Source: a virus (Duplodnaviria > Heunggongvirae > Uroviricota > Caudoviricetes). Taken from it: a stretch of DNA of 54,176 nt. The DNA is taken from the IMG/VR virus record IMGVR_UViG_2563366830_000017, positions 1 through 54,176 of that record. One strand, given 5' to 3'. Position numbers and translations under genes: made by a program. Positions 21,356-39,917 of the stretch are shown here, one piece after another. Each line of letters begins with the position of its first letter. Position 1 is the stretch's first letter. The notes beneath the pieces are model-generated. The model saw nothing but the letters and a program-made list of their open reading frames with translations. It did no database searches and was not told where the DNA came from.

Positions 21356-25036
<3,681 letters not shown>

Positions 25037-25056
<20 letters not shown>

Positions 25057-26356
25057 TCTCCCGCATATTGCCAGCATGGCCTTTAATGAGCCGCTGATGC
25101 TTGAACCCGCCTATGCGCGGGTTTTCTTTTGTGCGCTTGCAGGCCAGCTTGGGATCAGCCGCCTGACGGATGCGGTGTCCGGTGACAGCCTGACTGCCGG
25201 AGAGGCACCCGCGACGCTGGCGTTATCCGTTAATGATGACGGACCACGACAGGCCCGCAGTTATCAGGTCATGAATGGCATCGCCGTGCTGCCGGTTTCC
25301 GGCACGCTGGTCAGCCGGACGCGGGCGCTGCAGCCGTATTCGGGGATGACCGGTTACAACGGCATTATCGCCCGTCTGCAACAGGCTGCCAGTGACCCGA
25401 TGGTGGACGGCATTCTGCTGGATATGGACACGCCAGGCGGAATGGTGGCGGGGGCATTTGACTGCGCTGACATCATCGCCCGTGTGCGTGACATAAAACC
25501 GGTATGGGCGCTGGCCAACGACATGAACTGCAGTGCAGGTCAGCTGCTTGCCAGTGCCGCCTCCCGGCGTCTGGTCACGCAGACCGCCCGGACAGGCTCC
25601 ATCGGCGTCATGATGGCTCACAGTAATTACGGTGCTGCCCTGGAGAAACAGGGTGTGGAAATCACGCTGATTTACAGCGGCAGCCATAAGGTGGATGGCA
25701 ATCCCTACAGCCATCTTCCGGATGACGTCCGGGAGACACTGCAGTCCCGGATGGACGCAACCCGCCAGATGTTTGCGCAGAAGGTGTCGGCATATACCGG
25801 CCTGTCTGTGCAGGCTGTGCTGGATACCGAGGCTGCAGTGTACAGCGGTCAGGAGGCCATTGATGCCGGACTGGCTGATGAACTTGTTAACAGCACCGAT
25901 GCGATCACCGTCATGCGTGATGCACTGGATGCGCGTAAATCCCGTCTCTCAGGAGGGCGAATGACCAAAGAGACTCAATCAACAACTGTTTCAGCCACTG
26001 CTTCGCAGGCTGACGTTACTGACGTGGTGCCAGCGACGGAGGGCGAAAACGCCAGCGTGGCGCAGCCGGACGTGAACGCGCAGATCACCGCAGCGGTTGC
26101 GGCAGAAAACAGCCGCATTATGGGGATCCTCAACTGTGAGGAGGCTCACGGACGCGAAGAACAGGCGCGCGTTCTGGCAGAAACCCCCGGAATGACCGTG
26201 GAAACGGCCCGCCGCATTCTGGCTGCAGCACCACAGAGTGCACAGGCGCGCAGTGACACTGCGCTGGATCGTCTGATGCAGGGGGCACCGGCACCGCTGG
26301 CTGCAGGTAACCCGGCATCTGATGCCGTTAACGATTTGCTGAACACACCAGTGTAA
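25037..26356 (+). CDS. C: Head protease/minor capsid protein C (GTG start)
   Basis: In-frame with ORF-track 24890..26356; lambda C begins at TAELRNLPHIASMAFNEPLML; GTG at 25037. Confidence 0.88.
25751..26356 (+). CDS. nu3: Scaffolding protein Nu3 (in-frame internal start within C)
   Basis: ATG (MDATRQMFAQ...) 714 nt into C, same offset as lambda Nu3. Confidence 0.75.
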   Translation: MDATRQMFAQKVSAYTGLSVQAVLDTEAAVYSGQEAIDAGLADELVNSTDAITVMRDALDARKSRLSGGRMTKETQSTTVSATASQADVTDVVPATEGENASVAQPDVNAQITAAVAAENSRIMGILNCEEAHGREEQARVLAETPGMTVETARRILAAAPQSAQARSDTALDRLMQGAPAPLAAGNPASDAVNDLLNTPV

Positions 26357-26365
26357 GGGATGTTT

Positions 26366-26698
26366 ATGACGAGCAAAGAAACCTTTACCCATTACCAGCC
26401 GCTGGGCAACAGTGACCCGGCTCATACCGCAACCGCGCCCGGCGGATTGAGTGCGAAAGCGCCAGCAATGACCCCGCTGATGCTGGACACCTCCACCCGT
26501 AAGCTGGTTGCGTGGGATGGCACCACCGACGGTGCTGCCGTTGGCATTCTGGCGGTTGCTGCTGACCAGACCAGCACCACGCTGACGTTCTACAAGTCCG
26601 GCACGTTCCGTTATGAGGATGTGCTCTGGCCGGAGGCTGCCAGCGACGAGACGAAAAAACGGACCGCGTTTGCCGGAACGGCAATCAGCATCGTTTAA
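26366..26698 (+). CDS. D: Head decoration protein D
   Basis: 110 aa [27 protein letters not shown]... matches lambda gpD. Confidence 0.95.
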
Positions 26699-26719
26699 CT
26701 TTACCCTTCATCACTAAAG

Positions 26720-26740
26720 GCCGCCTGTGCGGCTTTTTTT
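26720..26740 (+). terminator. Hairpin plus T-run between D and E (terminator/attenuator-like)
   Basis: GCCGC-CTGT-GCGGC followed by TTTTTTT. Confidence 0.45.
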
Positions 26741-26753
26741 ACGGGATTTTTTT

Positions 26754-27029
26754 ATGTCGATGTACACAACCGCCCAGCTGCTGGCGGCAAATGAGCAGAA
26801 ATTTAAGTTTGATCCGCTGTTTCTGCGTCTCTTTTTCCGTGAGAGCTATCCCTTCACTACGGAGAAAGTCTATCTCTCACAAATTCCTGGACTGGTAAAC
26901 ATGGCGCTGTACGTTTCGCCGATTGTTTCCGGTGAGGTTATCCGTTCCCGTGGCGGCTCCACCTCTGAATTTACGCCGGGATATGTCAAACCCAAGCACT
27001 TAGCATGGCTTTCTGAGGCTTTCGTGTAG
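26754..27029 (+). pseudogene. E: Major capsid protein E, 5-prime fragment (82 lambda-like codons then 10 foreign codons and stop) created by insertion
   Basis: MSMYTTAQLLAANEQKFKFDPLFLRLFFRESYPFTT...GYVKPKH matches lambda E; then LAWLSEAFV-stop. Confidence 0.9.
26989..26998. repeat. Left copy of 10-bp direct repeat AACCCAAGCA at island junction
   Basis: Identical 10-mer at 38323..38332; lambda-like E sequence ends here. Confidence 0.75.
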
Positions 27030-27110
27030 TTGCTGGTTTTTACACTTAATCTTTTGATAATAAAGAATAAGTTTATCTGGCGCTTTCACTGAATTTTCCT
27101 CGTTATCTGT

Positions 27111-27146
27111 GTGTTGCAATCATCTCTGTATTGCAGCTTGTATTGC
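27111..27146 (+). repeat. Candidate integrase arm-type sites: three copies of TGT(A/G)TTGC(A) near left end
   Basis: GTGTTGCA, TGTATTGCA, TGTATTGC read in sequence; two more TGTATTGCA copies at 38227..38247. Confidence 0.45.
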
Positions 27147-27161
27147 TTTTTGGGGCTAAAA

Positions 27162-28397
27162 ATGGCTGGCGAGAACAAACTGAGCGACAAAGCGCTTAAA
27201 GGATATCTGGGGAAACCCAGAGAAAAGCAGATCACCATTGCTGATGGAAAGGGGCTTTCTATTCGTGTGAGTACTAAAGGGGCTGTGAGCTTTGTTTTCT
27301 TCTACAGGTTAGCAGGTGGCCGGGCTGCTCCGGTCTGGCTAACGTTGGGTAAATATCCTGATATGTCACTCAAACAGGCAAGGGAAAAGCGCGACGAGTG
27401 CCGTGGTTGGTTGGCTGACAAACGTGATCCGCGTATCCAGATTAAGATTCAGGCTGAAGAACGCTTAAAGCCGGTCACAGTGGAGGATGCACTAAATTAC
27501 TGGTATGAAAACTACTGTAAGGTGCGTCGTAAAACTCATGCTGTAACGCTTGGCAGATTTCGAAAGCATATCTTTCCCTATATCGGTCATTTGCCCGTAA
27601 ATGACACTCACCTATATGAATGGCTGGACTGTTTTGACCGAATTAAACGTAATGCACCAGTTATGGCGGCGTATGTTTTTTCTGACACTAAATTAGCTCT
27701 TCGTTTTTGTCGGGTACGCCAGTACGCGACGTGTGATGCTTTAAAGGATTTGCGCATGAGTGATGTGGGGCAGATTGCAGGTAAGCGGGATCGGGTTCTG
27801 GATGAAGCCGAACTCGGCCAGCTCTGGAAGGCAATTTTTGTCGAGCCTGATTTAAAACTAATGTCTGAATACACGCGAAAAATGTTTGTGCTTTGTACAG
27901 TATTTGGATGTCGAATGAGTGAAGCCCGATTATCAGAATGGAGCGAATGGGATCTCGAAAGTTGGGTTTGGACTGTGCCAAAAGATCACTCAAAAACTGG
28001 TGTTGAAATCGTCAGACCAGTACCTGAAATTCTACGACAGTGGGTAACGGATGTTCACGAAGAGACAAAACATACTGGTTATGTGCTGGGAAGTCTGCGA
28101 ATTAGAGAAAGCGTAAGCAAGATTGGGGGGAAAATCGGTAAACGTTTGGGCCATGAAAAACAATGGTCACTACACGACCTTAGAAGAACGCTATCTACTC
28201 ATCTAAGTGATCTCGGTGTTGAATTTTATGTAGTAGAACAACTGTTAGGCCATGCGCTACCTGGCGTGGCAGGTGTTTACAACCGGAGTAAGTTTATGGC
28301 TAAAAAACTGGATGCTCTGGAACTCTGGACTACATATCTCAATAGCATCGCAGCTGCTGATTCAAAAGTGACAATCCTCAAACAAAAGGCTGGTTAG
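27162..28397 (+). CDS. Tyrosine integrase, P4-type (island-encoded)
   Basis: 411 aa from ATG; C-terminal HxLRxT...HxxxxxxxxY-like catalytic region (HELR...HDLRRT...LGHA...VY); adjacent to left junction. Confidence 0.85.
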   Translation: MAGENKLSDKALKGYLGKPREKQITIADGKGLSIRVSTKGAVSFVFFYRLAGGRAAPVWLTLGKYPDMSLKQAREKRDECRGWLADKRDPRIQIKIQAEERLKPVTVEDALNYWYENYCKVRRKTHAVTLGRFRKHIFPYIGHLPVNDTHLYEWLDCFDRIKRNAPVMAAYVFSDTKLALRFCRVRQYATCDALKDLRMSDVGQIAGKRDRVLDEAELGQLWKAIFVEPDLKLMSEYTRKMFVLCTVFGCRMSEARLSEWSEWDLESWVWTVPKDHSKTGVEIVRPVPEILRQWVTDVHEETKHTGYVLGSLRIRESVSKIGGKIGKRLGHEKQWSLHDLRRTLSTHLSDLGVEFYVVEQLLGHALPGVAGVYNRSKFMAKKLDALELWTTYLNSIAAADSKVTILKQKAG

Positions 28398-28398
28398 C

Positions 28399-28629
28399 AT
28401 GAAAAAAATGGCAATTGTTGATAAAAAGGGTCTGGAGTACATTCCTAACATTGACCGAATGATCCGTGAGAAAGAATGTCGGGAGCTAACTACTCTTGCG
28501 AACAGCACACGCTGGAAGCTGGAGAAGGAAGGAAAATTTCCTAAGCGGATCAAGATTGGTTCCACTGCTGTTGCATATCGTCTTTCAGAAGTGCAGGCAT
28601 GGATTCGAGGTGAGTGGGAAACAACTTAA
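28399..28629 (+). CDS. AlpA-family HTH regulator/excisionase-like protein
   Basis: 76 aa; placed immediately after integrase as in P4-like and PICI elements. Confidence 0.7.
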   Translation: MKKMAIVDKKGLEYIPNIDRMIREKECRELTTLANSTRWKLEKEGKFPKRIKIGSTAVAYRLSEVQAWIRGEWETT

Positions 28630-28636
28630 CTATTAG

Positions 28637-29467
28637 GTGGGCATTGTGGCTATATTTCATTATACAGATCTTTTTGGTTTGAAAGGTATATTAGACTCTA
28701 ATTCTTTATGGGCTACAAACATATATTTCTTAAATGATAAAGAGGAGTCTAACCATGGATGTGAATGCTTTCGAAATACAATTAAAATAGTTGATGACAA
28801 TATCATTCCAAAAGATAAGAAAACTATTTTGCTCAAGTCTCTTGACATGTATGAGAAAGGGAGGTTACAAAAAGAAAAAGGGATTGATAAACATGTTTAT
28901 AGCATCTCTTTTTGTAAGGAAAACGATAAGTTAAGTCAGTGGAGAGGTTACGGAAATAAACAGGGTGTTTGCATTGAGTTTGATGCGGATGAACTTGTGA
29001 GCTTTTCTCAAAATATTTATTTAAATTGTGTTGCACATGATGTTATATATTCAAATAATAACGATATTACTAAGATGAGTAAGGAGTTGGGAGAGTTTTT
29101 TTCTTGTAATGGTATTAACATTAAAGAAATGAATGATCATTTTGTAACAATGGTCTCTACGTATCAATTTATATCTAAATACATCCCATTTTTTAAACAT
29201 CCTAGTTTTATCGAAGAGAATGAATTTAGATTGGTATTTACTCCGTGGATGCAAATGCCAGATGTGCACTTCAGAATAAATAATAATGGAATCATCCCTT
29301 ATATCATCATTGATAATAAAGATAATAGAAAGTTACCAATTAAAAGCATTACAATTGGCCCGACAAACGATTATGATTTCATTGAGGCTGGTATAAAAAT
29401 GTTCTTGGATTCAAGAGGATTTAGTTCTGTGGAAATTAAATCCTCATCAATTCCATTCAGGGGGTAA
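28637..29467 (+). CDS. DUF2971-like protein (AT-rich cargo gene)
   Basis: N-terminal FHYTDLFGLKGILDSNSLWATNIYFLNDKEE resembles the DUF2971 signature as I recall it; GTG start; low GC. Confidence 0.55.
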   Translation: MGIVAIFHYTDLFGLKGILDSNSLWATNIYFLNDKEESNHGCECFRNTIKIVDDNIIPKDKKTILLKSLDMYEKGRLQKEKGIDKHVYSISFCKENDKLSQWRGYGNKQGVCIEFDADELVSFSQNIYLNCVAHDVIYSNNNDITKMSKELGEFFSCNGINIKEMNDHFVTMVSTYQFISKYIPFFKHPSFIEENEFRLVFTPWMQMPDVHFRINNNGIIPYIIIDNKDNRKLPIKSITIGPTNDYDFIEAGIKMFLDSRGFSSVEIKSSSIPFRG

Positions 29468-29598
29468 GGATTAACACTTTTAATCTGTGATATTATAAAA
29501 ATGGTGGATAAAGGCGACCAGAATTGGTCGCCAATGTGAGTATATAGTTAGCCTTAATCAGAATACGAGGTTATCGCCTGATAGGCAATGTGAACAGT

Positions 29599-29955
29599 TC
29601 AATATTTAGGTGGTTCAACAAGAGCGTTTATCATTGCTCTCAAATTATCGCGAACACTTATCCAAGTCTGTTCTGCTCGTTCTAACTCATCAGTGTACAA
29701 CTTTAATGTTTTATCTATGCCATATGTGGCTATTAAATTTATAGCTTCTTGTAATTTTTCAGGATTATTCCTTCTTGGGGGAGTGAATATACCACGGATT
29801 TTTCCGGTAATTAAAGCTTTACGGTGTCTACATAGAATACCTTTACTTCCTGCTGGACAATTACAAGTCATGATTAGCGAGCCAGAATCGTTTGATACAG
29901 TGACTATGTATACATCCAAACTACTGCTACTTGTTGCGAAGAATTCGTATTTCAT
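29599..29955 (-). CDS. SWIM-type zinc-finger protein (CxCx8CxH), AT-rich cargo gene
   Basis: Motif CNCPAGSKGILCRH seen in translation; convergent with DUF2971-like gene. Confidence 0.5.
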   Translation of the reverse strand: MKYEFFATSSSSLDVYIVTVSNDSGSLIMTCNCPAGSKGILCRHRKALITGKIRGIFTPPRRNNPEKLQEAINLIATYGIDKTLKLYTDELERAEQTWISVRDNLRAMINALVEPPKY

Positions 29956-29982
29956 GTGTTAGCTCCTTGACTTCAATTATTC

Positions 29983-30114
29983 TTATCCTTTTGGTTCAAT
30001 ACCGCGCCGTAGCAGCTCTTTGCGCCCTAATTCTTTAAGCCAGTTGGCTAGGCTTATGCCGTCGCTCTGCGCTTCTTTGTCGAATTGCTCTTTTAGCTCT
30101 GGAGAAATTCGCAT
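29983..30114 (-). CDS. Small basic protein, possible ribbon-helix-helix repressor (43 aa from ATG)
   Basis: MRISPELKEQFDKEAQSDGISLANWLKELGRKELLRRGIEPKG; divergent from downstream plus-strand operon. Confidence 0.4.
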   Translation of the reverse strand: MRISPELKEQFDKEAQSDGISLANWLKELGRKELLRRGIEPKG

Positions 30115-30313
30115 TCTGAATTGTGGAGATTGCCCATCACCCTTAGGACTTTTATCGCGTTTGATCGTTGACAAGTGACCACCTATTGAATTAGCCTTTT
30201 CATTGTTAGGTGGCCACCTTAACACGGGGGCACTTAAAAAAGCAAAGCCCGAAGGTGCTGGGAACACCAACGGGCTTCTAACCACCAACGATAGCAACAG
30301 TATCGAGGTAGCT

Positions 30314-30517
30314 ATGAGAAATCATACCACACACCCGCAAGGGCGGGACCCGCACAACCTGAATAAATACATCTGGCGTTTTATCGCCTTGAGTACGGCA
30401 CAACCGCGCATGATTACCATCGAGGCCATCAGCGAACAGGAAGCCCGCCAGCAATCCCCAACTGGCTGCGTGATGGTATTCGCCGCCCGTATTCGTCAGG
30501 AGGTGTGCCGTGCTTAA
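30314..30517 (+). CDS. Hypothetical small protein, first gene of island early operon
   Basis: ORF track 30203..30517; ATG at 30314 chosen. Confidence 0.4.
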   Translation: MRNHTTHPQGRDPHNLNKYIWRFIALSTAQPRMITIEAISEQEARQQSPTGCVMVFAARIRQEVCRA

Positions 30518-30695
30518 AACCTTCCGTGTATTTGCCCGAGCTGTTAACCCACTGGGCCACACAATTGGTATCACTCAGAACGTGAAGGCTGTTAATGTTC
30601 AGACGGCTATTGCTGCGGTGAGAAGCGAATCATCAGAATATGGCTTATCACAAGTCATTATTTCAGCAGTGTATGAATTAAAAGAGGTGCATTAA
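30510..30695 (+). CDS. Hypothetical small protein
   Basis: 61-aa ORF, overlapping starts/stops in operon. Confidence 0.45.
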   Translation: MLKTFRVFARAVNPLGHTIGITQNVKAVNVQTAIAAVRSESSEYGLSQVIISAVYELKEVH

Positions 30696-30886
30696 TGCAG
30701 GAAATCACATTACACGAAGCCGCTGAACGTGCGCACCAGACAGAAATTATTTGCCGCCTTCTTGAGGTATACCCGAACAAAATTACAGATGCTGATATAT
30801 CCGCGCTGGCGAGCCTACTGGCGCGCCTTTCGGGAAGTGTCGCTAGTTTCCTGATTGAGGAAGAAAGTAAGCTGGTGGGGGATTAA
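30695..30886 (+). CDS. Hypothetical small protein
   Basis: 63-aa ORF, translationally coupled in operon. Confidence 0.45.
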   Translation: MQEITLHEAAERAHQTEIICRLLEVYPNKITDADISALASLLARLSGSVASFLIEEESKLVGD

Positions 30887-31108
30887 ATGAATACAGAACG
30901 GGAAGTCTTTTTTAAATTGTTAGCATGTGCAGAAAGTCCATTAACTTTAAATAATTCAGCAAAAGCAATATTAAATATGTGGCTTGATTGCATAAATGAC
31001 AATGAAGATGCAAATATTGCTTATGGCCTGTTGTCACTTATTGATGAATCAGCAGAAAAACTCAATGACGCAATAAATAGTGCCCTGCTATCAAATAAGT
31101 CGAGTTAA
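30887..31108 (+). CDS. Hypothetical small protein
   Basis: 73-aa ORF in operon. Confidence 0.45.
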   Translation: MNTEREVFFKLLACAESPLTLNNSAKAILNMWLDCINDNEDANIAYGLLSLIDESAEKLNDAINSALLSNKSS

Positions 31109-31125
31109 GTCGAGGAATAAATAAT

Positions 31126-31425
31126 ATGGAAATGAAAAATTCTGGCTTTATTGCCAGCGGCCCCGCTCGGCCTGAATTTATGAACGGCGATATTTACCGC
31201 GATAAATACGGCGGCACGGTAACGATTAAAGGCGTGGCAGAACGGCGCATCACTTACCGCCGTGAGGGGTATAGCTATGACTGCGTGATGCCTGTTTATC
31301 AGTTCCGGCGTGATTTTTCCCTGGTATATGCCGCACCCCGCAGTAAGCCCATCAGCAGGGAAAAAGCGCGGGGAAACATCCAGAAAATGAAAAGCATGAT
31401 TAACGCATTCAGGGGCAAAAAATGA
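31126..31425 (+). CDS. Hypothetical protein (99 aa)
   Basis: ORF immediately upstream of and overlapping primase start. Confidence 0.5.
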   Translation: MEMKNSGFIASGPARPEFMNGDIYRDKYGGTVTIKGVAERRITYRREGYSYDCVMPVYQFRRDFSLVYAAPRSKPISREKARGNIQKMKSMINAFRGKK

Positions 31426-33173
31426 AACTGGCACCGAACTTAAAAAAACAGCCACGCGACAGACTGACAGAGGTAATCATCTTTGCAGGTAGTGATGCGT
31501 GGAGCCATGCGAAAGAGTGGCGGGAATGGGCGGGTAAACATATTGCCGCCGACGATGTGCCGCCTGTCGTGCTGGCTGATGAGCAACTGAAAAATATCAC
31601 CGATTACCGGATCATTGATGAAGATCGTCAGTGTGTGCGTGTTTACCGCGCAGGACATATCACAGAGCACAGCATGACGCAGATTGTTACGTTACTGGCT
31701 GTGGCTGGAGTGAAGACCGTACACGAATACGCGGGGATTACTGACACCAGCCCAGTGGATTTATCCGAGCAGTTGCCGCGACTCAAAGAGGAATGCGAGC
31801 GTGGGGAAAGTCTGGTGCTTAATCTTCCGACGAAGCAAAAGGCGCAACTTTCACAGATGGCAGACAGTGAACGTGCACAACTACTTGCCGATCGCTTTGA
31901 TGGTGTGTGTGTTCATGCAGAAAGTGAAATCGTCCACGTATGGCGCGGCGGGGTATGGTGTCCGGTCAGCACAATGGAGCTGAGCCGCGAAATGGTGGCG
32001 ATCTATTCAGAGCACAGGGCCACGTTCAGCAAACGTGTAATCAATAACGCCGTGGAAGCGTTAAAAGTTATTGCCGACCCCATGGGGGAGCCGTCCGGTG
32101 ATTTGCTACCGTTCACTAATGGTGTGCTTAACCTGAAAACGGGGGAATTTTCTCCGCACTCGCCGGAGCACTGGAGCACCACGCACAATGGCATTGAGTA
32201 CACGCCACCAGTAGCAGGGGAAAACATCCGCGATAATGCGCCAAATTTCCATAAATGGCTTGAACATGCCGCAAGAAAAGACCCGCGCAAGATGATGCGT
32301 ATATGTGCCGCGTTATACATGATTATGGCGAACCGCTACGACTGGCAGATGTTCATTGAGGCCACCGGAGACGGGGGAAGCGGTAAGAGTACATTTACCC
32401 ATATTGCCACCCTGCTTGCTGGCAAACAGAACACCGTAAGCGCGGAGATGACATCACTCGATGATGCAGGAGGGCGCGCGCAGGTTGTCGGGAGTCGTCT
32501 TATCGTCCTTGCCGATCAGCCGAAATATACGGGGGAAGGCACGGGCATCAAGAAAATCACGGGAGGCGATCCCGTTGAAATTAACCCGAAATATGAGAAG
32601 CGATTCACGACGATAATAAGGGCGGTGGTACTGGCAACCAATAACGACCCGATGATCTTTACCGAACGGGCCGGAGGTGTGTCACGCCGTCGGGTGATTT
32701 TCCGGTTCGACAACATTGTAAGGGAGGACGAAAAAGACAAGGAATTACCGGAAAAGATAGCGGCAGAAATCCCCGTAATTATCCGCCGCTTGCTGGCTAA
32801 TTTTGCTGACCCTGAAAAGGCACGGGCTTTATTACTGGAACAGCGTGACGGTGATGAAGCTCTGGCAATAAAGCAGCAAACGGATCCGGTTGTTGAGCTT
32901 TGCGCGGCGCTGGAGTTTCTGGAGGAAGCTCGTGGGCTAATGATGGGCGGTGGTGGTGACACCGTGAAGTACACGACCAGAAACAGCCTTTACCGTGTCT
33001 ATATGGCCTTCATGGCATACACAGGAAAGGGGAAATGTTTGAGCGTGAATGAGTTCGGAAAGGCTATGAGGTCAGCGGCGAAAGTTTACGGATATGAATA
33101 TATTACGCGAAAAGTTAAGGGAGTCACGCAGACCAACGCAACGACTACTGATGATTGCGATGCGTTTTTATAA
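31422..33173 (+). CDS. Primase/replication protein (P4-alpha C-terminal-like, with Walker A GDGGSGKST)
   Basis: 583 aa; P-loop GDGGSGKS seen; followed by iteron array. Confidence 0.8.
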   Translation: MKLAPNLKKQPRDRLTEVIIFAGSDAWSHAKEWREWAGKHIAADDVPPVVLADEQLKNITDYRIIDEDRQCVRVYRAGHITEHSMTQIVTLLAVAGVKTVHEYAGITDTSPVDLSEQLPRLKEECERGESLVLNLPTKQKAQLSQMADSERAQLLADRFDGVCVHAESEIVHVWRGGVWCPVSTMELSREMVAIYSEHRATFSKRVINNAVEALKVIADPMGEPSGDLLPFTNGVLNLKTGEFSPHSPEHWSTTHNGIEYTPPVAGENIRDNAPNFHKWLEHAARKDPRKMMRICAALYMIMANRYDWQMFIEATGDGGSGKSTFTHIATLLAGKQNTVSAEMTSLDDAGGRAQVVGSRLIVLADQPKYTGEGTGIKKITGGDPVEINPKYEKRFTTIIRAVVLATNNDPMIFTERAGGVSRRRVIFRFDNIVREDEKDKELPEKIAAEIPVIIRRLLANFADPEKARALLLEQRDGDEALAIKQQTDPVVELCAALEFLEEARGLMMGGGGDTVKYTTRNSLYRVYMAFMAYTGKGKCLSVNEFGKAMRSAAKVYGYEYITRKVKGVTQTNATTTDDCDAFL

Positions 33174-33179
33174 AAAATG

Positions 33180-33430
33180 GCAATGGTTATCTACCTTGTC
33201 TACCTGACTGAAAGAAAATACTTTTATTTCAATGTATTAATGCAGGTAGATAACTATTTTTCACTGTCTACCTGTTATCTACCTTATCTACCCATTTTTG
33301 TAGACAGGTAAGGAGACGGGTAGAGATGAGGTAGACAGCTATTTGGGGCTGTCTACCTCCCTGAAACCCGCGCCATTACTGGCCTGATAACTAATCAGGT
33401 AGACAAGGTAGACAAGGTGGTGGTGCACAA
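33180..33430. repeat. ori: Island replication-origin iterons (GGTAGACA / TGTCTACC family, both orientations)
   Basis: At least 10 copies of (A)GGTAGAC(A) or its complement within 250 bp directly after primase gene. Confidence 0.75.
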
Positions 33431-33462
33431 AAAACTTTTTAAACGAGGGGGTAAAAATAAAA

Positions 33463-33720
33463 ATGCACACATCAGGAAAACTGAACAAACATATAAAGCC
33501 ACATTACCGCGCCCTTGATATGGCTGAACACTGGCTAAGGGTGGCGATTAAGGCAATAGACCGCAACGCCGGGGAAGGATACGCGAAAGCACATCCCGAA
33601 CTGATAAGCGCATTCATGACAACGGCGGCTGCAAACTTTGCCACGCTGACCGAACGGGAGATTGCTGAAGCGGAGGAAGTGACAACAATCAATATTAAGT
33701 CCGGAGAGCAGGCAGCATGA
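33463..33720 (+). CDS. Hypothetical protein (85 aa)
   Basis: ORF overlapping ssb start. Confidence 0.45.
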   Translation: MHTSGKLNKHIKPHYRALDMAEHWLRVAIKAIDRNAGEGYAKAHPELISAFMTTAAANFATLTEREIAEAEEVTTINIKSGEQAA

Positions 33721-34166
33721 CGGCGCAAATATCAGTTTACGGGCGGTTGGTGGACGACCCGCAGACAAAACAGACCAGCAAGGGCACCCCCATGACGCTG
33801 GCGCGTATGGCGGTATCACTGCCCTGCAGTCAGTCGGATGACGGTCTGGCGACGTTGTGGTTATCTGTCCTGGCGTTTGGCAGACAAGCCGACGCGCTGG
33901 CAAAGCATCACAAAGGCGAACTCCTGAGCGTGGCGGGTAACATGCAGATGAGCCAGTGGACTGGACAGAACGGCGAAACGCGGCAGGGCTGGCAGGTTAT
34001 CGCAGACAGCGTAATCAGTGCGCGATCGGTGCGACCGGGCGGCAAAAAAGGCCAACAGGGGCAGGCTACTGACGCACTGAACAGAGCAAAACAACAGGCA
34101 GATCAGCAAGGAAGCCAGCCACCAGAGGGAGATAATGAGCAATGGGGAGATGATATCCCGTTTTAA
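33717..34166 (+). CDS. ssb: Single-stranded DNA-binding protein
   Basis: OB-fold-like N-region, Gln/Gly-rich linker and acidic C-terminal tail ending DDIPF. Confidence 0.85.
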   Translation: MTAQISVYGRLVDDPQTKQTSKGTPMTLARMAVSLPCSQSDDGLATLWLSVLAFGRQADALAKHHKGELLSVAGNMQMSQWTGQNGETRQGWQVIADSVISARSVRPGGKKGQQGQATDALNRAKQQADQQGSQPPEGDNEQWGDDIPF

Positions 34167-34382
34167 ATATTGCCAATAAAAAAAGCCGGAAAAAATAAAT
34201 TTTCCGGCATGCTACATAAATCCCGACCAAAGGGAGTGAAGATATTAACACTAATTGTCCGCACTGAAGTTGTCACCCCAAAACTTTATACAACATTGCA
34301 CTCGGTTGCATGTGTTCGCATGACAAATATCGGTGATAGCATATATCCACAATTATTTTTAATGAATGCAAAGAGGATGCGT

Positions 34383-35423
34383 ATGGTTGATTTATATTCG
34401 CCTACTCAGCTTGTACAGGTAGTTAATGCTGTAGATGTACAAAAACAACTAAATGCGTTATTTACCAGTTTGTTTTTTACTCGCTCGGTAATGTTTGAAT
34501 CGCGCGATATTATTCTTGATACAATCGACGATCCAAATATCCCAATTGCAGCGTTTTGTTCTCCTATGGTGGGTAGTAAAGTTTCACGTGACGAAGGGTA
34601 CGAATCAAAAACAATTCGTCCAGGCTATATGAAGCCGAAAAGCAGCATTGATCCAAATAAGTTAGCTGTGCGCCCTGCTGGTGTGTCACCTGAGCAATAC
34701 AATGCTTTTGGGGCGCGTAATATTAAAGTTAAACAGGCGATTGTAAATCAGGCTAAAGCTATTCGTGCACGTATTGAATGGCTTGCTGTTCAGGCAATCA
34801 CAACGGGGAAAAATATCATTGAGGGCGATGGTATTGAACGTTATGAGCTGGACTGGAATATAAAACCACAAAATATCATCACTCAGTCTGGCGGTACTGA
34901 GTGGTCAGGTAAGGATAAAGAAACTTTTGATCCAAATGATGATATTGAGAGCTACGCAGAATTTAGTGAGGGCGTCACTAATATCATCATTATGGGTGGT
35001 AATGTATGGAAGAAATACCGTTCATTCAGAGCGATAAAAGAGGCTTTGGATACCCGTCGTGGTTCTAATTCCGAACTGGAAACGGCCCTTAAAGACCTTG
35101 GTGATTCGGTGAGTTTTAAAGGGTATATGGGCGATGTTGCGATTGTTGTTTACAGCGGGCGTTATACCGACGAGGACGGAACAGAAAAACATTTCCTTGA
35201 TCCTGATTTGATGGTGCTTGGCAATACGGCTCTTCAGGGGATTGTCGCCTATGGCGGTATTCAGGATCCGGAGCTAATCCGAATGGGGCTGACTAAAGCC
35301 GAACTTGCACCGAAAAACTATATTGTGCCTGGTGATCCGGCTATTGAATATGTGCAGACACATTCAGCACCACAGCCAATACCGGCCCGCATCAATCGTT
35401 TTGTTACCGTTCGCATTGGCTAA
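34383..35423 (+). CDS. Island-encoded major capsid protein, diverged homolog of lambda E
   Basis: Blocks shared with prophage E: NIITQSGGTEWSGKDKETFDPNDDIESYA, LDTRRGSNSELETALKDLG, YMGDVAIVVYSGRY, MVLGNT; ORF track 34170 start is upstream. Confidence 0.85.
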   Translation: MVDLYSPTQLVQVVNAVDVQKQLNALFTSLFFTRSVMFESRDIILDTIDDPNIPIAAFCSPMVGSKVSRDEGYESKTIRPGYMKPKSSIDPNKLAVRPAGVSPEQYNAFGARNIKVKQAIVNQAKAIRARIEWLAVQAITTGKNIIEGDGIERYELDWNIKPQNIITQSGGTEWSGKDKETFDPNDDIESYAEFSEGVTNIIIMGGNVWKKYRSFRAIKEALDTRRGSNSELETALKDLGDSVSFKGYMGDVAIVVYSGRYTDEDGTEKHFLDPDLMVLGNTALQGIVAYGGIQDPELIRMGLTKAELAPKNYIVPGDPAIEYVQTHSAPQPIPARINRFVTVRIG

Positions 35424-35432
35424 GGGGGAGCA

Positions 35433-35774
35433 ATGGCTACTCATTACACTGAACTCATGGCTGGCACTGAAGCACTGGTGACTACGCTGGGGATATTTTC
35501 AGCTAATAAAGGGGTAATTCCTGCATTTACGCCACTGATGCAGGAAGATGCAACAGGTGCACTGGTGGTATGGGATGGTTCGAGCGTAGGTAAAGCGGTT
35601 TATGTTTCCGCTGTACAAATCGACACCGCGAAAAAAACACAGGCTCAGGTCTATAAGACAGGTGTCTTAAATGTTGATGCTCTGAACTGGCCTGAGTCTG
35701 TTAAAGAACTGTCAGTAAAGATTGCAGCGTTTGTTGGCTCAGGTATTTCTGTTCAGCCGCTGGCTCGTGTGTAA
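35433..35774 (+). CDS. Island-encoded decoration protein, diverged homolog of lambda D
   Basis: THYTEL, FTPLMQEDATGALVVWDGSSVGKAV, YKTGVLNVDALNWPE, AAFVGSGISV align with prophage D motifs. Confidence 0.8.
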   Translation: MATHYTELMAGTEALVTTLGIFSANKGVIPAFTPLMQEDATGALVVWDGSSVGKAVYVSAVQIDTAKKTQAQVYKTGVLNVDALNWPESVKELSVKIAAFVGSGISVQPLARV

Positions 35775-35785
35775 AGGGGGATACA

Positions 35786-36169
35786 ATGCAGAATGATTAC
35801 AATGACCTTAAGCCAATTGCCGAAATGATGTACCCGAATCCAGCTGTAGAGGAATTAAAAGCTATCGCTGACAAAATGTGTTTAAGCGAGCGCCTTGTTG
35901 ATATGAATCAGGTGATGGAAATTACAACCCTGAGTCGTCGTACACTGCTAAACCTTGAGGCTAGTGGAGAGTTCCCGGAGCGTGTGCAGGTTACGGAAGG
36001 GCGTAAGGCCTGGTATTTAAGTGAAGTGATCGACTGGATAAATAATATTCCTCGCGCTTCTGAATATTGCCGCGTACCTGTCCCAAAAAAGCCAGATGCG
36101 GCGCTATGCCTCAAGATTGAGCGTGTACGCCGCAATGCACGGGATGGTCGCTATAAGCTGATTGGTTGA
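35786..36169 (+). CDS. HTH protein (AlpA/MerR-like C-terminal half) immediately upstream of island cos
   Basis: 127 aa; segment MNQVMEITTLSRRTLLNLEASGEFPERVQVTEGRKAWYLSEVIDWI looks like AlpA-type HTH. Confidence 0.55.
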   Translation: MQNDYNDLKPIAEMMYPNPAVEELKAIADKMCLSERLVDMNQVMEITTLSRRTLLNLEASGEFPERVQVTEGRKAWYLSEVIDWINNIPRASEYCRVPVPKKPDAALCLKIERVRRNARDGRYKLIG

Positions 36170-36194
36170 TGAAATTAGGGCCCGCTCTGGCTGG

Positions 36195-36400
36195 CGGGTC
36201 CTTTCCGGTGATCCAGAACGTTACGGGGCGTCAGGCGCGCAGATTCTTGCTATTTATGACAATTTTCTGCGATTTGCCGTTTCCGTTCTTCTTCCTTGTA
36301 ACTTATTGTTTTTACTAGAAATACCCTCTAAAAAGAAAGGAAATGACAGGTGCTGAAAACAGGCTTTTGGGTCTCCGTCATTTCCTTTCTCATTTTTATC
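36195..36400 (+). other. cos: Island cos-like site, same orientation as prophage cos
   Basis: GGGTCCTTTCCGGTGATCC...ACGTTACGGGGCG...CGCG...GCTATTTATGA...AAAAAGAAAGGAAATGACAGGTGCTGAAAAC aligns block-by-block with 20591..20800. Confidence 0.8.
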
Positions 36401-36652
36401 TAAAAGTAAGCATCGAGGCCACCCCAAATGCTTATAGAGGTTATTGTGTCACTATGCGTACTGTTCAGGATTTAAAGTAGCAAGACATCTAGTTGCTTGC
36501 AGTTTTGGCGAATGATGTGAGGTTCTCTATAACAGATAATGTAACAAGTTACTGATATATTCTGTTATGGTTGACTTTAAATTTTGTTGCTCCTTCAATG
36601 AATTATTGAGGGGTAAAAATTAGGCGTGATAAGAATCGATCACGCCTATTGT

Positions 36653-37969
36653 TTATCTTGAAGAAATTTTAGGCAGGCTTTTTAAAAATAAATCTTTATT
36701 TCTACTTGCATCAGTTAAAAGTGTTAGGAATATTTTATCTGTAGGAGTGCATGTGCTCTTGTTTAACAGTAATTCACCAAGTTTCTGTAATCGAGAGAAT
36801 TGCCCATCCTCTTGGATTCTGTGACGAAGTGTACTATCATTTTTAATAACATCAACAAATGCAGAAACCATATTAATATCAAAGTGTTCAAACATTTCCA
36901 ATATTAAAGGTGCAGCCCCATTTGAATAAAAATTCTTCCTTCCATACTGATAGCTGAAACCACGATGGCCAACATAAGTTTTTGTAATGGCTGAAACAAA
37001 TTCAACAATATTATCTTCAGGGACGAAACTCGAGAATGGTAATAATTGGGTTACGATTTTTTCCTCTTCTGACCAATTATCTAAAGACTCGGTGAGTTTA
37101 TTAATGAGAGGCTCAATAATAACTTTTCGGGATGCAGGGCTAATATACATCAGTCCATCTACCAATAGTATGAATTGTTGTGCCTTCTCTATCTTATTGT
37201 TGTTTCCTGAAACTAAATACTTGTCAAATTGTTGGCCGACTTTACGTCGGTCGTCTTTTGAAAGTAATGTCCATAAAATAGGTGCGCAAAATTCAATGTT
37301 GTTTCTGAGTTCACTTGATATATTGGATGAGCAGTATGTGCCAAAAAAACGAGAGGATAATTCACTGATATAAATTGCAGGTAGATCTGAAAAGGCTTGC
37401 TTAACTGCCAGACTATTTTTATTAAATGTTGCCGAATCCATTTCTGAAAGATATGTAGTTATATCTATGATGGCTGGTGGAAACTCTTTAGAAAGAACGT
37501 ATTTATTACAATCATTAATCAGGTTCACTACTTTGATTAAATCAGGGTCGCTACTTTGTGGATGTCCACCAAATAGATTCCTGGTTTCTCTAGCTTGTTG
37601 TAATAGTTTCTGACCTTCTCGATCGATAACTCCTATTTTAAATGCTCCATCTATTAAATCAAAGTCGCTCACATAATCCTGAAAATCTTCATACGTTTTA
37701 ATTTCTTTTTTTTGTTTACACTCTTTGTTGAATAGATCTAGGCTACGATGAATTATCTTTTGACGTAAATCATCAACTACAGCATTCCAGTAAGCAGTGA
37801 TGGCACTTCTATAACCTTTTACAGGAAGAACTCTTATTGCTTCTGAAATATATGGGCAGTCAACTACATCATGCCTCACAGTTGAGAGCGCAGTTTGTAA
37901 CAATGTAACTTCTGTAGAGTCTAGTGGAGTTGGCTGCACTAAATGAGAACTTATCTCTGTACCCTTCAT
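36653..37969 (-). CDS. Hypothetical 438-aa protein, AT-rich cargo gene between island cos and right junction
   Basis: Low GC; contains R-x5-H motif (RNLFGGH); no family confidently assigned. Confidence 0.6.
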   Translation of the reverse strand: MKGTEISSHLVQPTPLDSTEVTLLQTALSTVRHDVVDCPYISEAIRVLPVKGYRSAITAYWNAVVDDLRQKIIHRSLDLFNKECKQKKEIKTYEDFQDYVSDFDLIDGAFKIGVIDREGQKLLQQARETRNLFGGHPQSSDPDLIKVVNLINDCNKYVLSKEFPPAIIDITTYLSEMDSATFNKNSLAVKQAFSDLPAIYISELSSRFFGTYCSSNISSELRNNIEFCAPILWTLLSKDDRRKVGQQFDKYLVSGNNNKIEKAQQFILLVDGLMYISPASRKVIIEPLINKLTESLDNWSEEEKIVTQLLPFSSFVPEDNIVEFVSAITKTYVGHRGFSYQYGRKNFYSNGAAPLILEMFEHFDINMVSAFVDVIKNDSTLRHRIQEDGQFSRLQKLGELLLNKSTCTPTDKIFLTLLTDASRNKDLFLKSLPKISSR

Positions 37970-38322
37970 TTCAGGATTTTCCTATTCTTTTCCATTTTTC
38001 TACTCTATTGAATTTGAAAAAGATATCAAGTTCGTTCTTGCCAGTTTTAAGTGGAAAATTTGATGTTACCTTATTGAGATAAGGCAGTTCTCTATAACCT
38101 ATTGTTATTAATTATTTTTATTTTTTTCCAATTCAGATGTTTAGGGCTAAGAAGTTAAGTGAGAGTTCACAGCAAAACTGCTTCTAGTTCCTCACCGAGG
38201 AGCAAAAGGTTAAGACAGCGTACTTTGTATTGCACAATGTATTGCAGAACCTTCTTTCGAAAGCTACAACAATCAATTTTATATTGAAAATTCAATCATA
38301 TCCTTTCGATATTGACTCATAT

Positions 38323-38332
38323 AACCCAAGCA
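38323..38332. repeat. Right copy of 10-bp direct repeat AACCCAAGCA at island junction
   Basis: Identical to 26989..26998; lambda-like E sequence resumes here. Confidence 0.75.
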
Positions 38333-39113
38333 TGAAGTGAATCCGCAGATGACCCTGCGTCGCCTGCCGGATGAAGATCCGCAGAATCTGGCGGACCCGG
38401 CTTACCGTCGCCGTCGCATCATCATGCAGAACATGCGTGACGAAGAGCTGGCCATTGCCCAGGTGGAAGAGATGCAGGCAGTTTCTGCCGTGCTTAAGGG
38501 CAAATACACCATGACCGGTGAAGCCTTCGATCCGGTTGAGGTGGATATGGGCCGCAGTGCGGCCAACAACATCACGCAGTCCGGCGGCACGGTGTGGAGC
38601 AAGCGTGACAAGTCCACGTATGACCCGACCGACGATATCGAAGTCTACGCGCTGAACGCCAGCGGCGTGGTGAATATCATCGTGTTTGATCCGAAAGGCT
38701 GGGCGCTGTTCCGTTCCTTCAAGGCCGTCAGGGAGAAGCTGGATACCCGTCGCGGCTCTCATTCCGAGCTGGAGACAGCGGTAAAAGACCTGGGCAAAGC
38801 GGTGTCTTATAAGGGAATGTATGGCGATGTGGCCATCGTCGTGTATTCCGGACAGTACGTGGAAAACGGCGTCAAAAAGAACTTCCTGCCGGACAACACG
38901 ATGGTGCTGGGTAACACTCATGCACGCGGTCTGCGCACCTATGGCTGCATTCAGGATGCGGATGCATTGAGTGAGGGTATTAATGCGTCTCCCCGTTATC
39001 CGAAAAACTGGAAGACATCCGGCGATCCGGCGCGTGAGTTCACCATGATTCAGTCAGCACCGCTGATGCTGCTGGCTGACCCTGATGAGTTCGTTTCCGT
39101 ACAACTGGCGTAA
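38323..39113 (+). pseudogene. E: Major capsid protein E, 3-prime fragment (codons ~80-341)
   Basis: PKHEVNPQMTLRRLPDEDPQNLADPAYRRRRIIMQNM...EFVSVQLA matches lambda E C-terminal 260 aa. Confidence 0.9.
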
Positions 39114-39154
39114 TCGTGGCCCTTCGGGGCCATTTTCTCTCTGTGGAGGAGTTC

Positions 39155-39541
39155 ATGACGAAAGATGAACTGATTGCCCGTCTCCGGTCGCTGGGTGAGC
39201 AACTGAACCGCGATGTCAGTTTGACGGGAACGAAAGAAGAACTGGCGCTCCGTGTGGCAGAGCTGGAAGAGGAGCTTGATGACACTACCGATCAGGATAC
39301 CCCTATCAGCCCGGAAAATGCGCTGACCGGACATGAAAATGAGGTTGTATCAGCGCAGCCGGATACCGTGACTGATACGGCTGATCTGGTCACGGTTGTG
39401 GCACTGGTGACGCTGCATACTGATGCACTTCACGCCACGCGGGATGAACCTGTGGCATTTGTGCTGCCGGGAACGGCGTTTCGTGTCTCTGCCGGTGTGG
39501 CAGCTGAAATGACAGAGCGTGGCCTGGCCAGAATGCAATAA
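39155..39541 (+). CDS. FI: Head assembly/DNA-packaging protein FI
   Basis: MTKDELIARLRSLGEQLNRDVSLTGTKEELALRVAELEEEL... matches lambda FI. Confidence 0.9.
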   Translation: MTKDELIARLRSLGEQLNRDVSLTGTKEELALRVAELEEELDDTTDQDTPISPENALTGHENEVVSAQPDTVTDTADLVTVVALVTLHTDALHATRDEPVAFVLPGTAFRVSAGVAAEMTERGLARMQ

Positions 39542-39552
39542 CGGGAGGCGCT

Positions 39553-39906
39553 GTGGCTGATTTCGATAACCTGTTCGATGCTGCCATTGCCCGCGCCGAT
39601 GAAACGATACGCGGGTACATGGGAACGTCAGCCACCATGACATCCGGTGAGCAGTCCGGTGCTGTGATACGTGGTGTTTTTGATGACCCTGAAAATATCA
39701 GCTATGCCGGACAGGGCGTGCGCGTTGAAGGCTCCAGCCCGTCCCTGTTTGTCCGGACTGATGAGGTGCGGCAGCTGCGGCGTGGAGACACGCTGACCAT
39801 CGGTGAGGAAAATTTCTGGGTAGATCGGGTTTCGCCGGATGATGGCGGAAGTTGTCATCTCTGGCTTGGACGGGGCGTACCGCCTGCCGTTAACCGTCGC
39901 CGCTGA
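39553..39906 (+). CDS. FII: Head-tail connector protein FII
   Basis: 117 aa matching lambda FII. Confidence 0.93.
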   Translation: MADFDNLFDAAIARADETIRGYMGTSATMTSGEQSGAVIRGVFDDPENISYAGQGVRVEGSSPSLFVRTDEVRQLRRGDTLTIGEENFWVDRVSPDDGGSCHLWLGRGVPPAVNRRR

Positions 39907-39917
39907 AAGGGGGATGT

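Follow-up and report, generated by a model that had tools for sequence, protein, structure and literature searches.

A 2023 study described satellites inserted in the capsid gene of their own helper prophage and named them helper-embedded phage-inducible chromosomal islands (HE-PICIs); its catalogue lists 201 instances at the site in gene E considered here (PMC10111431). The junctions of the prototype, Eco567.11capE (11capE) of E. coli NRG857c (Tommasini, Mageeney and Williams 2023, NAR Genom Bioinform 5:lqad036), were verified by PCR and deep sequencing. SOS induction first causes its prophage and satellite to excise together and replicate, and only about 1 h later does the satellite itself leave, precisely and with restoration of E; formation of attB and attP was measured, and the authors recovered no virions or plaques (PMC10111431). 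Because none were obtained even from this prototype, transfer is unproven for HE-PICIs as a class. EcCICFT073, the model Gram-negative cos PICI (Fillol-Salom et al. 2018, 2019), occupies a chromosomal site, acts only in trans, and retains the cosN of its helper, whereas its cosB differs and is recognised by an Rpp-TerS heterodimer. Capsid-forming PICIs (cf-PICIs) carry a full set of genes for small capsids and their own DNA packaging, and the helper supplies nothing but their tails (Alqurainy et al., bioRxiv 10.1101/2022.09.08.507074). Satellite P4 has a P2-like helper and integrates in a tRNA gene, and in regulated gene integrity or active lysogeny (skin in sigK, phi10403S in comK) a mobile element interrupts a gene that its timed, precise excision restores.

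Here, we analysed a 54,176-nt stretch of DNA (the window) containing a lambdoid prophage whose gene E is split by an insert. This insert is very probably an HE-PICI of site group E:Phage_cap_E:80, with a P4-family integrase that recombines the 10-bp attP core with the identical 10 bp at codons 79-82 of the E gene of a resident prophage. The initial annotation had presented an element nested in a capsid gene as unusual; the arrangement holds, but the implied novelty does not, since it was described and catalogued in 2023, and the window adds an instance rather than a discovery. What is added here is an isogenic empty-site strain, a helper with its other late genes intact, satellite-specific cohesive ends beside a helper-like cosB, core-allele exchange, and strong purifying selection on the satellite capsid gene.

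The interrupted capsid gene and its empty site

The lambda-type gene E of the prophage is interrupted at 26998/38323 by an 11,334-bp element, with the 10-mer AACCCAAGCA on both sides (Table 1). As noted initially, the 10-mer lies at both junctions (26989 and 38323), and these are its only two copies on either strand of the window, compared to a chance expectation of ~0.1 copies (108,352 positions / 4^10); it covers codons K79-H82 of E. The upstream fragment had been read as 82 E codons followed by 10 unrelated codons; the former number stands, whereas the element adds 9 codons (LAWLSEAFV) before the stop at 27029, and in identical arrangements this fragment carries the annotation of a partial major capsid protein. 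The expected in-frame resumption of E was recovered, with E' and 'E joined in silico at the 10-mer forming a single continuous 1026-nt frame of 341 codons that matches Pfam Phage_cap_E (E 3e-70), and FI, FII, Z and later genes follow 'E in canonical order. In the current Pfam model, residues 5-81 of E align with profile positions 1-77, an offset of 3 from the '80' of the published site name, which probably reflects the Pfam model version. Both junction sequences and the core block equal those in the Supplementary Files of PMC10111431. With a 10-bp core at both ends and an E that rejoins seamlessly, the proposed site-specific insertion of an integrase-bearing satellite was borne out.

The initial annotation had also suggested searching related prophages for an empty site and for the same island elsewhere, and both were found. 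E. coli MS 196-1 (NZ_CP146681.1) carries the same prophage without the element, and the rejoined E equals its intact annotated major capsid gene (100%, 1026 nt, in one piece). Against this genome, window positions 15798-26998 showed 1 mismatch and positions 38323-54176 showed 19, and the left and right alignments share exactly the 10-bp core in the MS 196-1 subject. Since E is intact there and the alignments overlap by the core alone, 26999..38322 is a clean insertion. Of 5,426 complete E. coli genomes, about 173 (170-174) contain the attL junction, and helpers carrying near-identical islands reside at ybhC (the window), Qin/ydfJ and icd, with the same island genotype in at least two different helpers. 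These islands are near-identical, yet their flanks in the different helpers are 94-98% identical, which indicates independent integrations. An island ~99.95% identical to the present one (LS992171.1/2259302-2270635) is Eco15483.11.E_Phage_cap_E_80 in Supplementary File 1 of PMC10111431, and a comparison with 50,697 deposited phage genomes gave no match to the island. Both core copies were observed to change along with the allele of the helper (core-allele exchange), providing a testable handle on the crossover position. The perfect attB of MS 196-1, a natural presence/absence polymorphism, is consistent with precise excision.

Table 1. Positions of the satellite, its junctions and the relevant helper features in the window
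Feature	Position	Strand	Remarks
Helper lambdoid prophage	1419..54027		ybhC/bioA site (lambda attB)
Helper int	1419-2489	-
Helper cos	20589..20792	+	counterpart of satellite cos; cosN overhang GGGCGGCGACCT at 20621-20632
E' (5' part of helper major capsid gene)	26754..26998	+	codons 1-82
attL 10-bp core	26989..26998	+	AACCCAAGCA; equals identity block 'aacccaagca', PMC10111431 Supplementary File 1
HE-PICI satellite body	26999..38322	+	11,334 bp including one core copy
Doubled attP arm motif	27127..27146	+	TGTATTGCAGCTTGTATTGC; starts ~131.5 bp past core centre
Tyrosine integrase	27162..28397	+	Arm-DNA-bind_3 and Phage_integrase domains; 409/411 aa identical to 11capE integrase
AlpA (excisionase/regulator)	28399..28629	+	PF05930, E 3e-15
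Variable left accessory zone	28646..30297	.	'Bro zone' position; GC 36%
SWIM zinc-finger protein	29599-29955	-	left accessory zone
Icd-like protein, three small conserved ORFs, DUF4222 protein	30314..31425	+	Icd-like: repressor PHROG
Primase/helicase	31422..33173	+	D5_N, DUF5906, Pox_D5 domains
Putative origin	33186..33415	.	10 iterons GGTAGAYA / TRTCTACC, both orientations
85-aa conserved ORF, then SSB	33463..34166	+
Satellite major capsid protein	34383..35423	+	lambda-E homolog; 41% aa identity to helper E
Satellite head-decoration protein	35433..35774	+	gpD homolog; PF02924
127-aa AlpA-family winged-HTH protein	35786..36169	+	directly upstream of cos
Satellite cos	36194..36397	+	cosN 12-nt overhang GGGCGTCAGGCG at 36226-36237
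Satellite cosB R3, R2, R1	36278-36294, 36336-36350, 36375-36389		near-identical to helper's
Right-end cargo overall	36621..37969	-	GC 34%
Bidirectional hairpin	36621-36648		right-end cargo
438-aa protein without assigned function	36653-37969	-	right-end cargo
Doubled attP arm motif	38226..38245	+	TGTATTGCACAATGTATTGC; ends ~81.5 bp ahead of core centre
attR 10-bp core	38323..38332	+
'E (3' part of helper major capsid gene)	38333..39113	+	end of codon 82 to codon 341 and stop

Gene content of the satellite

All components predicted for the element were located, namely a P4-family integrase, AlpA, a primase with iterons, SSB, E and D homologs, cos and AT-rich cargo. The GC content of the satellite is 43% versus 57% in the flanking helper late genes, falling to 34-36% in the AT-rich cargo. 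The satellite lies inside the lambda E cognate in the same orientation as the helper late operon, and int, alpA and primase are co-oriented with E. From left to right, its zones are int/alpA, accessory, primase-ori-SSB with the putative origin directly 3' of the primase gene, and late (E and D homologs, cos), so that the Integration, Replication and Late zones of the HE-PICI scheme are clear. Genes for DUF2971, SWIM and Icd-like proteins were found in the second zone, the DUF2971 gene (+) lying with a decayed ORF in the left accessory part; no Bro-N domain was found in this zone by Pfam, and PMC10111431 used a specialised Bro annotation. At 409 of 411 identical residues, the integrase was assigned to the 11capE clade. 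An HE-PICI-specific doubled motif, tgTGTATTGCantgTGTATTGCa, lies 81 ± 2 bp ahead of the attP centre and again 132 ± 2 bp past it (PMC10111431); the doubled motif TGTATTGCnnnnTGTATTGC has exactly 2 matches in the window against 0.03 expected, and both sit at the published -81/+132 geometry when distances are taken in the reconstructed attP.

In the satellite capsid gene, 12 synonymous differences and 1 nonsynonymous difference from the prototype (pN/pS ~0.02) indicate that the gene is under strong purifying selection; the integrase, D-homolog and HTH genes likewise show purifying selection, and the gpD homolog has the same RefSeq protein accession as that of the prototype. At cos, R3 is identical to that of the helper and R2 and R1 differ by 1-2 nt, while the cosN overhangs of satellite and helper differ at 5 of 12 positions; cutting of the satellite cos by the helper terminase is therefore an assumption. 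A term search of the main text of PMC10111431 found no mention of the cosN difference. An Rpp-type protein was sought among five candidate ORFs by phmmer against the PDB Rpp entries 6HLK/6HN7, with no match at E ≤ 1. The 127-aa winged-HTH protein showed no sequence homology to Rpp.

Comparison with the prototype and other satellites

The island shares with 11capE the target codon in the lambda-E cognate, the 10-bp core, the junction sequences, the doubled attP motif, the cos position and the variant cosN overhang, and both run in the direction of the late operon. The two elements have identical or nearly identical AlpA, D-homolog and 127-aa HTH proteins, and their capsid genes are 97-99% identical at the nucleotide level. 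The sizes are also close (11.1 kb for 11capE and 11.3 kb here). However, the prototype's helper sits at icd and the present one at ybhC/bioA, and both the accessory and primase/replication region (~28.6-33.5 kb) and the right-end cargo (36.4-38.3 kb) have been replaced. The island accordingly carries DUF2971, SWIM and 438-aa proteins where 11capE has HEPN, DUF262 and other genes (HEPN and DUF262 at the right-end position), and the two primase genes are alignable only in part (74% identity over 302 nt).

Like EcCICFT073, the island has a terminal int, alpA, primase with ori, a late zone and cos; both measure ~10-15 kb, need a lambdoid helper (presumably, for the island) and are without terS, and the group of EcCICFT073 commonly has a lambda-E-type capsid gene. 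No lysis, tail or terminase genes were found in the island. Unlike EcCICFT073, it is nested in its helper, and its cos is organised in reverse, with helper-like cosB R3/R2/R1, a different cosN overhang and no detected Rpp homolog; the pairing of Rpp with a divergent satellite cosB that marks Rpp-type redirection is thus not seen. A satellite-encoded major capsid protein is shared with the cf-PICIs, but a scan of all island ORFs gave Phage_cap_E and HDPD homologs only, not a complete head and packaging set. With P4, the common features are a P4-family integrase with Arm-DNA-bind_3, a D5_N alpha-type primase, an AlpA homolog, an Icd-like gene, a size of ~11 kb and cos packaging by the helper terminase (presumed for the island); the island differs in its lambdoid helper and its integration in a phage gene, with no Pfam matches to Sid, Psu or Delta in the island and no Rfam match of any kind, C4/isrK (CI RNA) included, at gathering score anywhere in the window. 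Finally, the split gene resembles those of active lysogeny, except that the gene is itself part of a second mobile element, the helper phage, and the switch presumably serves the satellite and not the cell, as argued in PMC10111431.

Proposed cycle and alternative explanations

By analogy with the induction data of the prototype, the composite would excise and replicate, and the satellite would then excise late, restoring E. While the satellite is embedded, the helper should be unable to make E, and Q-antiterminated late transcription may run from E' into int, alpA, primase and the satellite E and D homologs; we infer this read-through from gene orientation and from the lack of any predicted + strand terminator between E' and int. 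At roughly 58 kb, the composite would exceed the capacity of a lambda head. Once excised, the satellite may replicate from its iteron origin, and the helper terminase could package it at the satellite's own cos, with its helper-like cosB and different cohesive ends, probably as ~four-unit concatemers (4 x 11,334 = 45.3 kb) in phage-sized heads with helper tails. The arrangement is a parasite nested in its own helper virus, a concept established in 2023: the helper capsid gene would be held hostage until the satellite departs, and replication and late transcription would come to the satellite passively, in cis.

Whether the satellite goes further and gives itself a separate identity in head assembly and packaging is doubtful; this would amount to capsid formation in part, mirroring the Rpp/cosB system of EcCICFT073. 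Under such a scheme, its strongly conserved E and D homologs, expressed by read-through from the helper late promoter while E is split, would build the first shells on the helper portal and protease, and the cohesive ends GGGCGTCAGGCG versus GGGCGGCGACCT, alongside a cosB of the helper type, would prevent satellite DNA from joining helper DNA. PMC10111431 suggested the satellite capsid copy only as a 'backup'. The cosN/cosB contrast and the purifying selection on the capsid gene offer testable handles on packaging specificity.

Three other explanations were considered. That the island is an abandoned, immobile remnant which permanently inactivates the capsid gene, in effect domesticating the prophage, we consider improbable. 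The failure of the prototype to yield virions and the apparent truncation of many HE-PICI helpers (PMC10111431) would fit such decay, as would the composite XSLGL-2 at the Qin site, with an internal stop in its tape-measure gene and a decayed early region, the pseudogene in the accessory zone of the island, and the lack of matches in the phage collection. But the core island genes are all intact, purifying selection acts on the capsid, D-homolog, HTH and integrase genes, and every other helper late gene in the window is intact; moreover, ~99.95% identical copies occur in different helpers at different chromosomal sites, an otherwise near-identical prophage retains a perfect attB, and the prototype excises precisely upon induction (PMC10111431).

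If the island spread chiefly through recombination between homologous flanks, in E and the late genes, in place of integrase-mediated integration, it could draw on lambdoid late regions that are 94-100% identical among prophages and mosaic around the site; in strain N10, for instance, FI and the 3' part of E match at 94-95%, next to sequence that is ~100% identical. Yet the boundaries fall exactly at the 10-bp core in every copy examined, the flanks of near-identical islands are 2-5% divergent all the way to the core, attP arm motifs are found at a constant spacing from it, and both core alleles switch with the helper allele, which is not expected from flank recombination; with precise excision also demonstrated for the prototype (PMC10111431), this route is very improbable. 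An assembly artefact, in which two unrelated contigs were merged via a short repeat, is a general possibility alone, and a chimera can be dismissed because the attL junction recurs in so many independently assembled complete genomes; both junctions are also found in RefSeq, annotated as pairs of partial capsid genes, and those of the prototype were confirmed experimentally.

The helper prophage

The helper has the order int, early genes, Q, lysis genes, Nu1 to D, FI to J, lom and stf, and all of its late genes that were checked are intact but E. Given that the prototype gave no virions, the window represents a useful experimental system, for which MS 196-1, a sequenced strain whose copy of the same prophage has an undamaged E nucleotide sequence, offers a natural isogenic control.

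An HE-PICI island splits the helper capsid gene E at a 10-bp core

In the window, the reading frame beginning at 26754 supplies the first 82 residues of a lambda-type major capsid protein and then runs into LAWLSEAFV*, and the remainder of E extends from 38333 to the stop at 39113. The initial annotation had described this split gene accurately, nearly to the base: its 82 lambda-E codons in the 5' fragment (E') stood, and the ten unrelated codons that it placed before the stop proved to be nine. When the two fragments were fused in silico at their common 10-mer, AACCCAAGCA, a single frame of 1026 nt (341 codons) was restored, as had been proposed, giving the attB junction ...GTCAAACCCAAGCATGAAGTG... 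in E and the attP junction ...CTCATATAACCCAAGCACTTAGCATGG... in the satellite. The 10-mer occurs at 26989 (attL) and 38323 (attR) and nowhere else in the window on either strand, and the GC content of the insert is 43%, compared to 57% for the late genes on either side.

The empty site sought in a related prophage was found in strain MS 196-1 (NZ_CP146681.1), which carries the same prophage as the window and whose annotated intact major capsid gene matches the joined E at 100% in a single alignment of 1026 nt. Relative to MS 196-1, window positions 12067-26998 showed one mismatch, aside from an IS3 element found only in MS 196-1, and positions 38323-54176 showed 19 mismatches, with the left and right alignments sharing exactly the 10-bp core in the MS 196-1 sequence. 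Site-specific integration with a short identity block classically leaves just such an overlap by the core alone. The IS3-family insertion lies in rusA of MS 196-1 (positions 3736-5045 of locus L004, corresponding to window 15798-15802); since only MS 196-1 carries it, the two prophages are sister copies rather than one isolate. The RefSeq accessions of the prophage and island proteins are consecutive (WP_016247981-992), a hint that these proteins were first deposited jointly from one older genome. Strain N10 likewise carries this prophage with E intact, in its case with the synonymous core variant AGCCGAAGCA. Window positions 38333-39500 (the 3' part of E plus FI) share only 94-95% identity with the N10 prophage, which is otherwise ~100% identical, and are 100% identical to MS 196-1; the window and N10 E proteins differ at 16 amino acids, every one downstream of the insertion site. 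This segment is a mosaic patch starting at the integration site.

The arrangement has a published prototype, Eco567.11capE (11capE) of E. coli NRG857c, an 11-kb island that splits the cognate of lambda E in a prophage integrated at icd, with a 10-bp identity block at the insertion and its own capsid gene on board (Tommasini, Mageeney and Williams 2023; PMC10111431). The same study counted 201 elements at the E:Phage_cap_E:80 site and a further 290 at 13 other late-gene sites. The window integrase is identical to that of the prototype at 409/411 positions, and the junction sequences match too. The doubled motif specific to HE-PICIs (helper-embedded PICIs), tgTGTATTGCantgTGTATTGCa, has exactly two copies in the window against 0.03 expected; in the reconstructed attP, one lies 81.5 bp upstream of the core centre and the other 131.5 bp downstream (published spacing 81 ± 2 and 132 ± 2; PMC10111431). 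A near-identical copy is catalogued in Supplementary File 1 as Eco15483.11.E_Phage_cap_E_80 (LS992171.1/2259302-2270635; PMC10111431), where other entries of this genotype have a length of 11,334 bp, equal to the window island. The match to LS992171.1 was reported as 100.0% identity over all 11,324 bases but is ~99.95% by comparison with strain XSLGL-2, whose island has the same bit score and ~5 mismatches (per-bin comparison). Because integrase, junctions, motif geometry, catalogued copy and length all agree, membership in the published HE-PICI class is established, and DNA identity together with the literature is decisive for this identification.

Two other satellite types were weighed against this assignment. 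The P4-family integrase recalls P4-like satellites; however, none of Sid, Psu and Delta was found among the island ORFs, and a P4-type immunity (CI) RNA gave no Rfam match at gathering score, so the island is not P4-like. Although it bears capsid and decoration homologs, it is without portal, protease or terminase and is therefore not a cf-PICI either. The interpretation given in the initial annotation is supported. Islands of this kind had been described, and a near-identical copy of the element catalogued, before (PMC10111431), and a specialist familiar with the 2023 paper would find no surprise in the window island. What is added here is an isogenic empty-site strain (MS 196-1), a helper whose other late genes are intact, a variant cosN beside a helper-like cosB, core-allele exchange, selection on the satellite capsid gene, and a 5/10 core match within that gene.

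Gene content, cos site and capsid gene of the satellite

The contents listed in the initial annotation (integrase, AlpA, primase with iterons, SSB, capsid and decoration homologs, cos and AT-rich cargo) were matched item by item.

Features of the satellite island, in window coordinates
Feature	Position	Remark
P4-family tyrosine integrase	27162-28397	
AlpA	28399-28629	
AT-rich accessory zone	28646-30297	DUF2971 protein, SWIM protein (minus strand), decayed ORF
Icd-like protein, three small conserved ORFs, DUF4222 protein	30314-31425	
D5_N/DUF5906 primase	31422-33173	
Iterons	33186-33415	ten, GGTAGAYA/TRTCTACC
85-aa ORF and SSB	33463-34166	
Lambda-E homolog	34383-35423	41% identity to helper E
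gpD homolog	35433-35774	
AlpA-family HTH protein	35786-36169	127 aa
cos site	36194-36397	
Hairpin, then 438-aa protein	36621-37969	protein on minus strand (36653-37969), without family assignment

Two AT-rich accessory slots (28646-29955 and, on the minus strand, 36653-37969) vary in content among island variants, the right one holding the 438-aa protein in the window versus HEPN and DUF262 genes in the prototype, and these slots look like cargo or defence hotspots. Assignment of the cargo to an identified defence system was rejected: the left-slot PADLOC matches are weak and to candidate systems only (DUF2971 to PDC-S31, 1e-4; SWIM to PDC-S62, 5e-5), and the 438-aa protein has no match in Pfam, NCBIfam, PADLOC or PDB, its sole match being an uncharacterised PHROG. 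The second AlpA-family protein (127 aa) is a winged-HTH protein extended at both its N and C termini; its gene immediately precedes cos, and its RefSeq accession is the same in the prototype. Judged by its position, it could be a putative packaging or late-gene factor.

The 12-nt cosN of the satellite (36226-36237), GGGCGTCAGGCG, differs from that of the helper and lambda (20621-20632), GGGCGGCGACCT, at 5/12 positions, and the identical variant is present in the prototype (about position 10760 of locus L002). Its cosB is close to that of the helper, with R3 identical and R2 and R1 differing by 1-2 nt. In EcCICFT073, the model Gram-negative cos PICI, cosN is kept, cosB is replaced and the packaging-redirection protein Rpp is needed, whereas the window island shows the opposite, a kept cosB and a changed cosN. 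Rpp-type packaging was rejected, with no Rpp sequence homolog in five candidate ORFs and cosB not replaced; the 127-aa protein likewise shows no resemblance to Rpp in sequence.

Against the prototype, 12 synonymous and 1 nonsynonymous changes were counted in the satellite capsid gene (pN/pS about 0.02), and synonymous changes only in the D homolog and HTH gene; this near-absence of nonsynonymous change indicates that selection maintains these genes. This contrasts with the reported dispensability of a PICI capsid gene for transfer. At the core-equivalent position of the satellite's own capsid gene, 5/10 bases match the core, consistent with self-integration being unlikely, as the authors note (PMC10111431).

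Probable repeated insertion, and exchange of the core with the target

As suggested in the initial annotation, the same island is present in other prophages, with near-identical copies in XSLGL-2 and NRG857c, and the helpers of these islands occupy three chromosomal sites: ybhC (window), Qin/ydfJ (XSLGL-2) and icd (NRG857c). The XSLGL-2 island is ~99.95% identical to that of the window, with the flanking prophage DNA no more than 94-98% identical all the way to the core; this divergence beside near-identical islands argues for repeated integrase-mediated insertion rather than vertical inheritance or flank recombination. The catalogued helper sites (icd, tRNA-Arg, ybhC, proP and thrS; PMC10111431) are consistent with it. 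The XSLGL-2 helper has an internal stop in its tape-measure gene (34497-37058 of locus L001) and a Qin-like early region; unlike the window copy, this island copy has probably become trapped in a defective helper. No match to the island was found among 50,697 deposited phage genome records.

In our counts over 5,426 complete E. coli genomes, the attL junction (E' plus int) was present in 170-174 and an intact lambda-type E in 3,154. The core has two synonymous alleles, AACCCAAGCA in the window (26989-26998 and 38323-38332) and AGCCGAAGCA in XSLGL-2 (L001 18991-19000 and 30325-30334), each island having its own allele at both attL and attR. Different alleles in nearly identical islands indicate that core positions 2 and 5 do not belong to the fixed sequence of the island but are swapped with the target, and the agreement between attL and attR indicates that the core tracks the E allele of the helper. 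Allele-specific probes detected AACCCAAGCA (AACCC) intact in 900 genomes and occupied in 92, and AGCCGAAGCA (AGCCG) intact in 1,727 and occupied in 81. By sites, AACCCAAGCA was intact at 1,019 and occupied (attL) at 93, a share of 8.4%, and AGCCGAAGCA was intact at 2,401 and occupied at 83, a share of 3.3%, both shares uncorrected for clonality. With both alleles common in intact E and both occupied, the reading of AACCCAAGCA in the intact MS 196-1 gene as an excision scar was rejected.

The helper and a possible order of events

Mitomycin C treatment of the prototype strain caused the entire composite to excise at 1 h and to replicate, and satellite excision was seen from 2 h only (reaching 42-98%), recreating attB and attP precisely; neither plaques nor virions were obtained (PMC10111431). 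In the copy described here, no helper E would be made until the satellite departs, and the helper late promoter would read the co-oriented satellite genes. Such read-through is expected because the stretch between E' and int has no predicted terminator-like site on the plus strand and because the Q-modified polymerase of lambda ignores terminators. The composite of ~58 kb would lie above the lambda packaging limit, as argued in PMC10111431. Once excised, the satellite may replicate from its iteron origin with its own primase and be packaged by the helper terminase from its own cos site; four units (45.3 kb) would make a lambda-sized substrate, and packaging as phage-sized concatemers has been reported for Gram-negative PICIs.

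The helper, a lambdoid prophage, occupies the attachment site of lambda at ybhC|bioA. The Qin site, occupied by the helper of the best island match (XSLGL-2), was rejected, as the flanks differ in the whole-window alignment and the first 24 kb of the window map to ybhC|bioA. Among the genes mapped from the MS 196-1 annotation, E is the sole broken one, with P, Q, S, R, Rz, Nu1, A, W, B, C, D, FI, FII, Z, U, V, G, H, M, L, K, I, J, lom and the stf N-terminal gene intact. The helper also carries likely lysogenic-conversion genes at 16715-17857 (minus strand), 19572-19865 (minus), 13113-13607 (plus) and 8839-9219 (minus), whose counterparts in near-identical prophages are labelled OmpC-type porin, Iss serum-survival lipoprotein, TagO-like protein and BamE-like lipoprotein.
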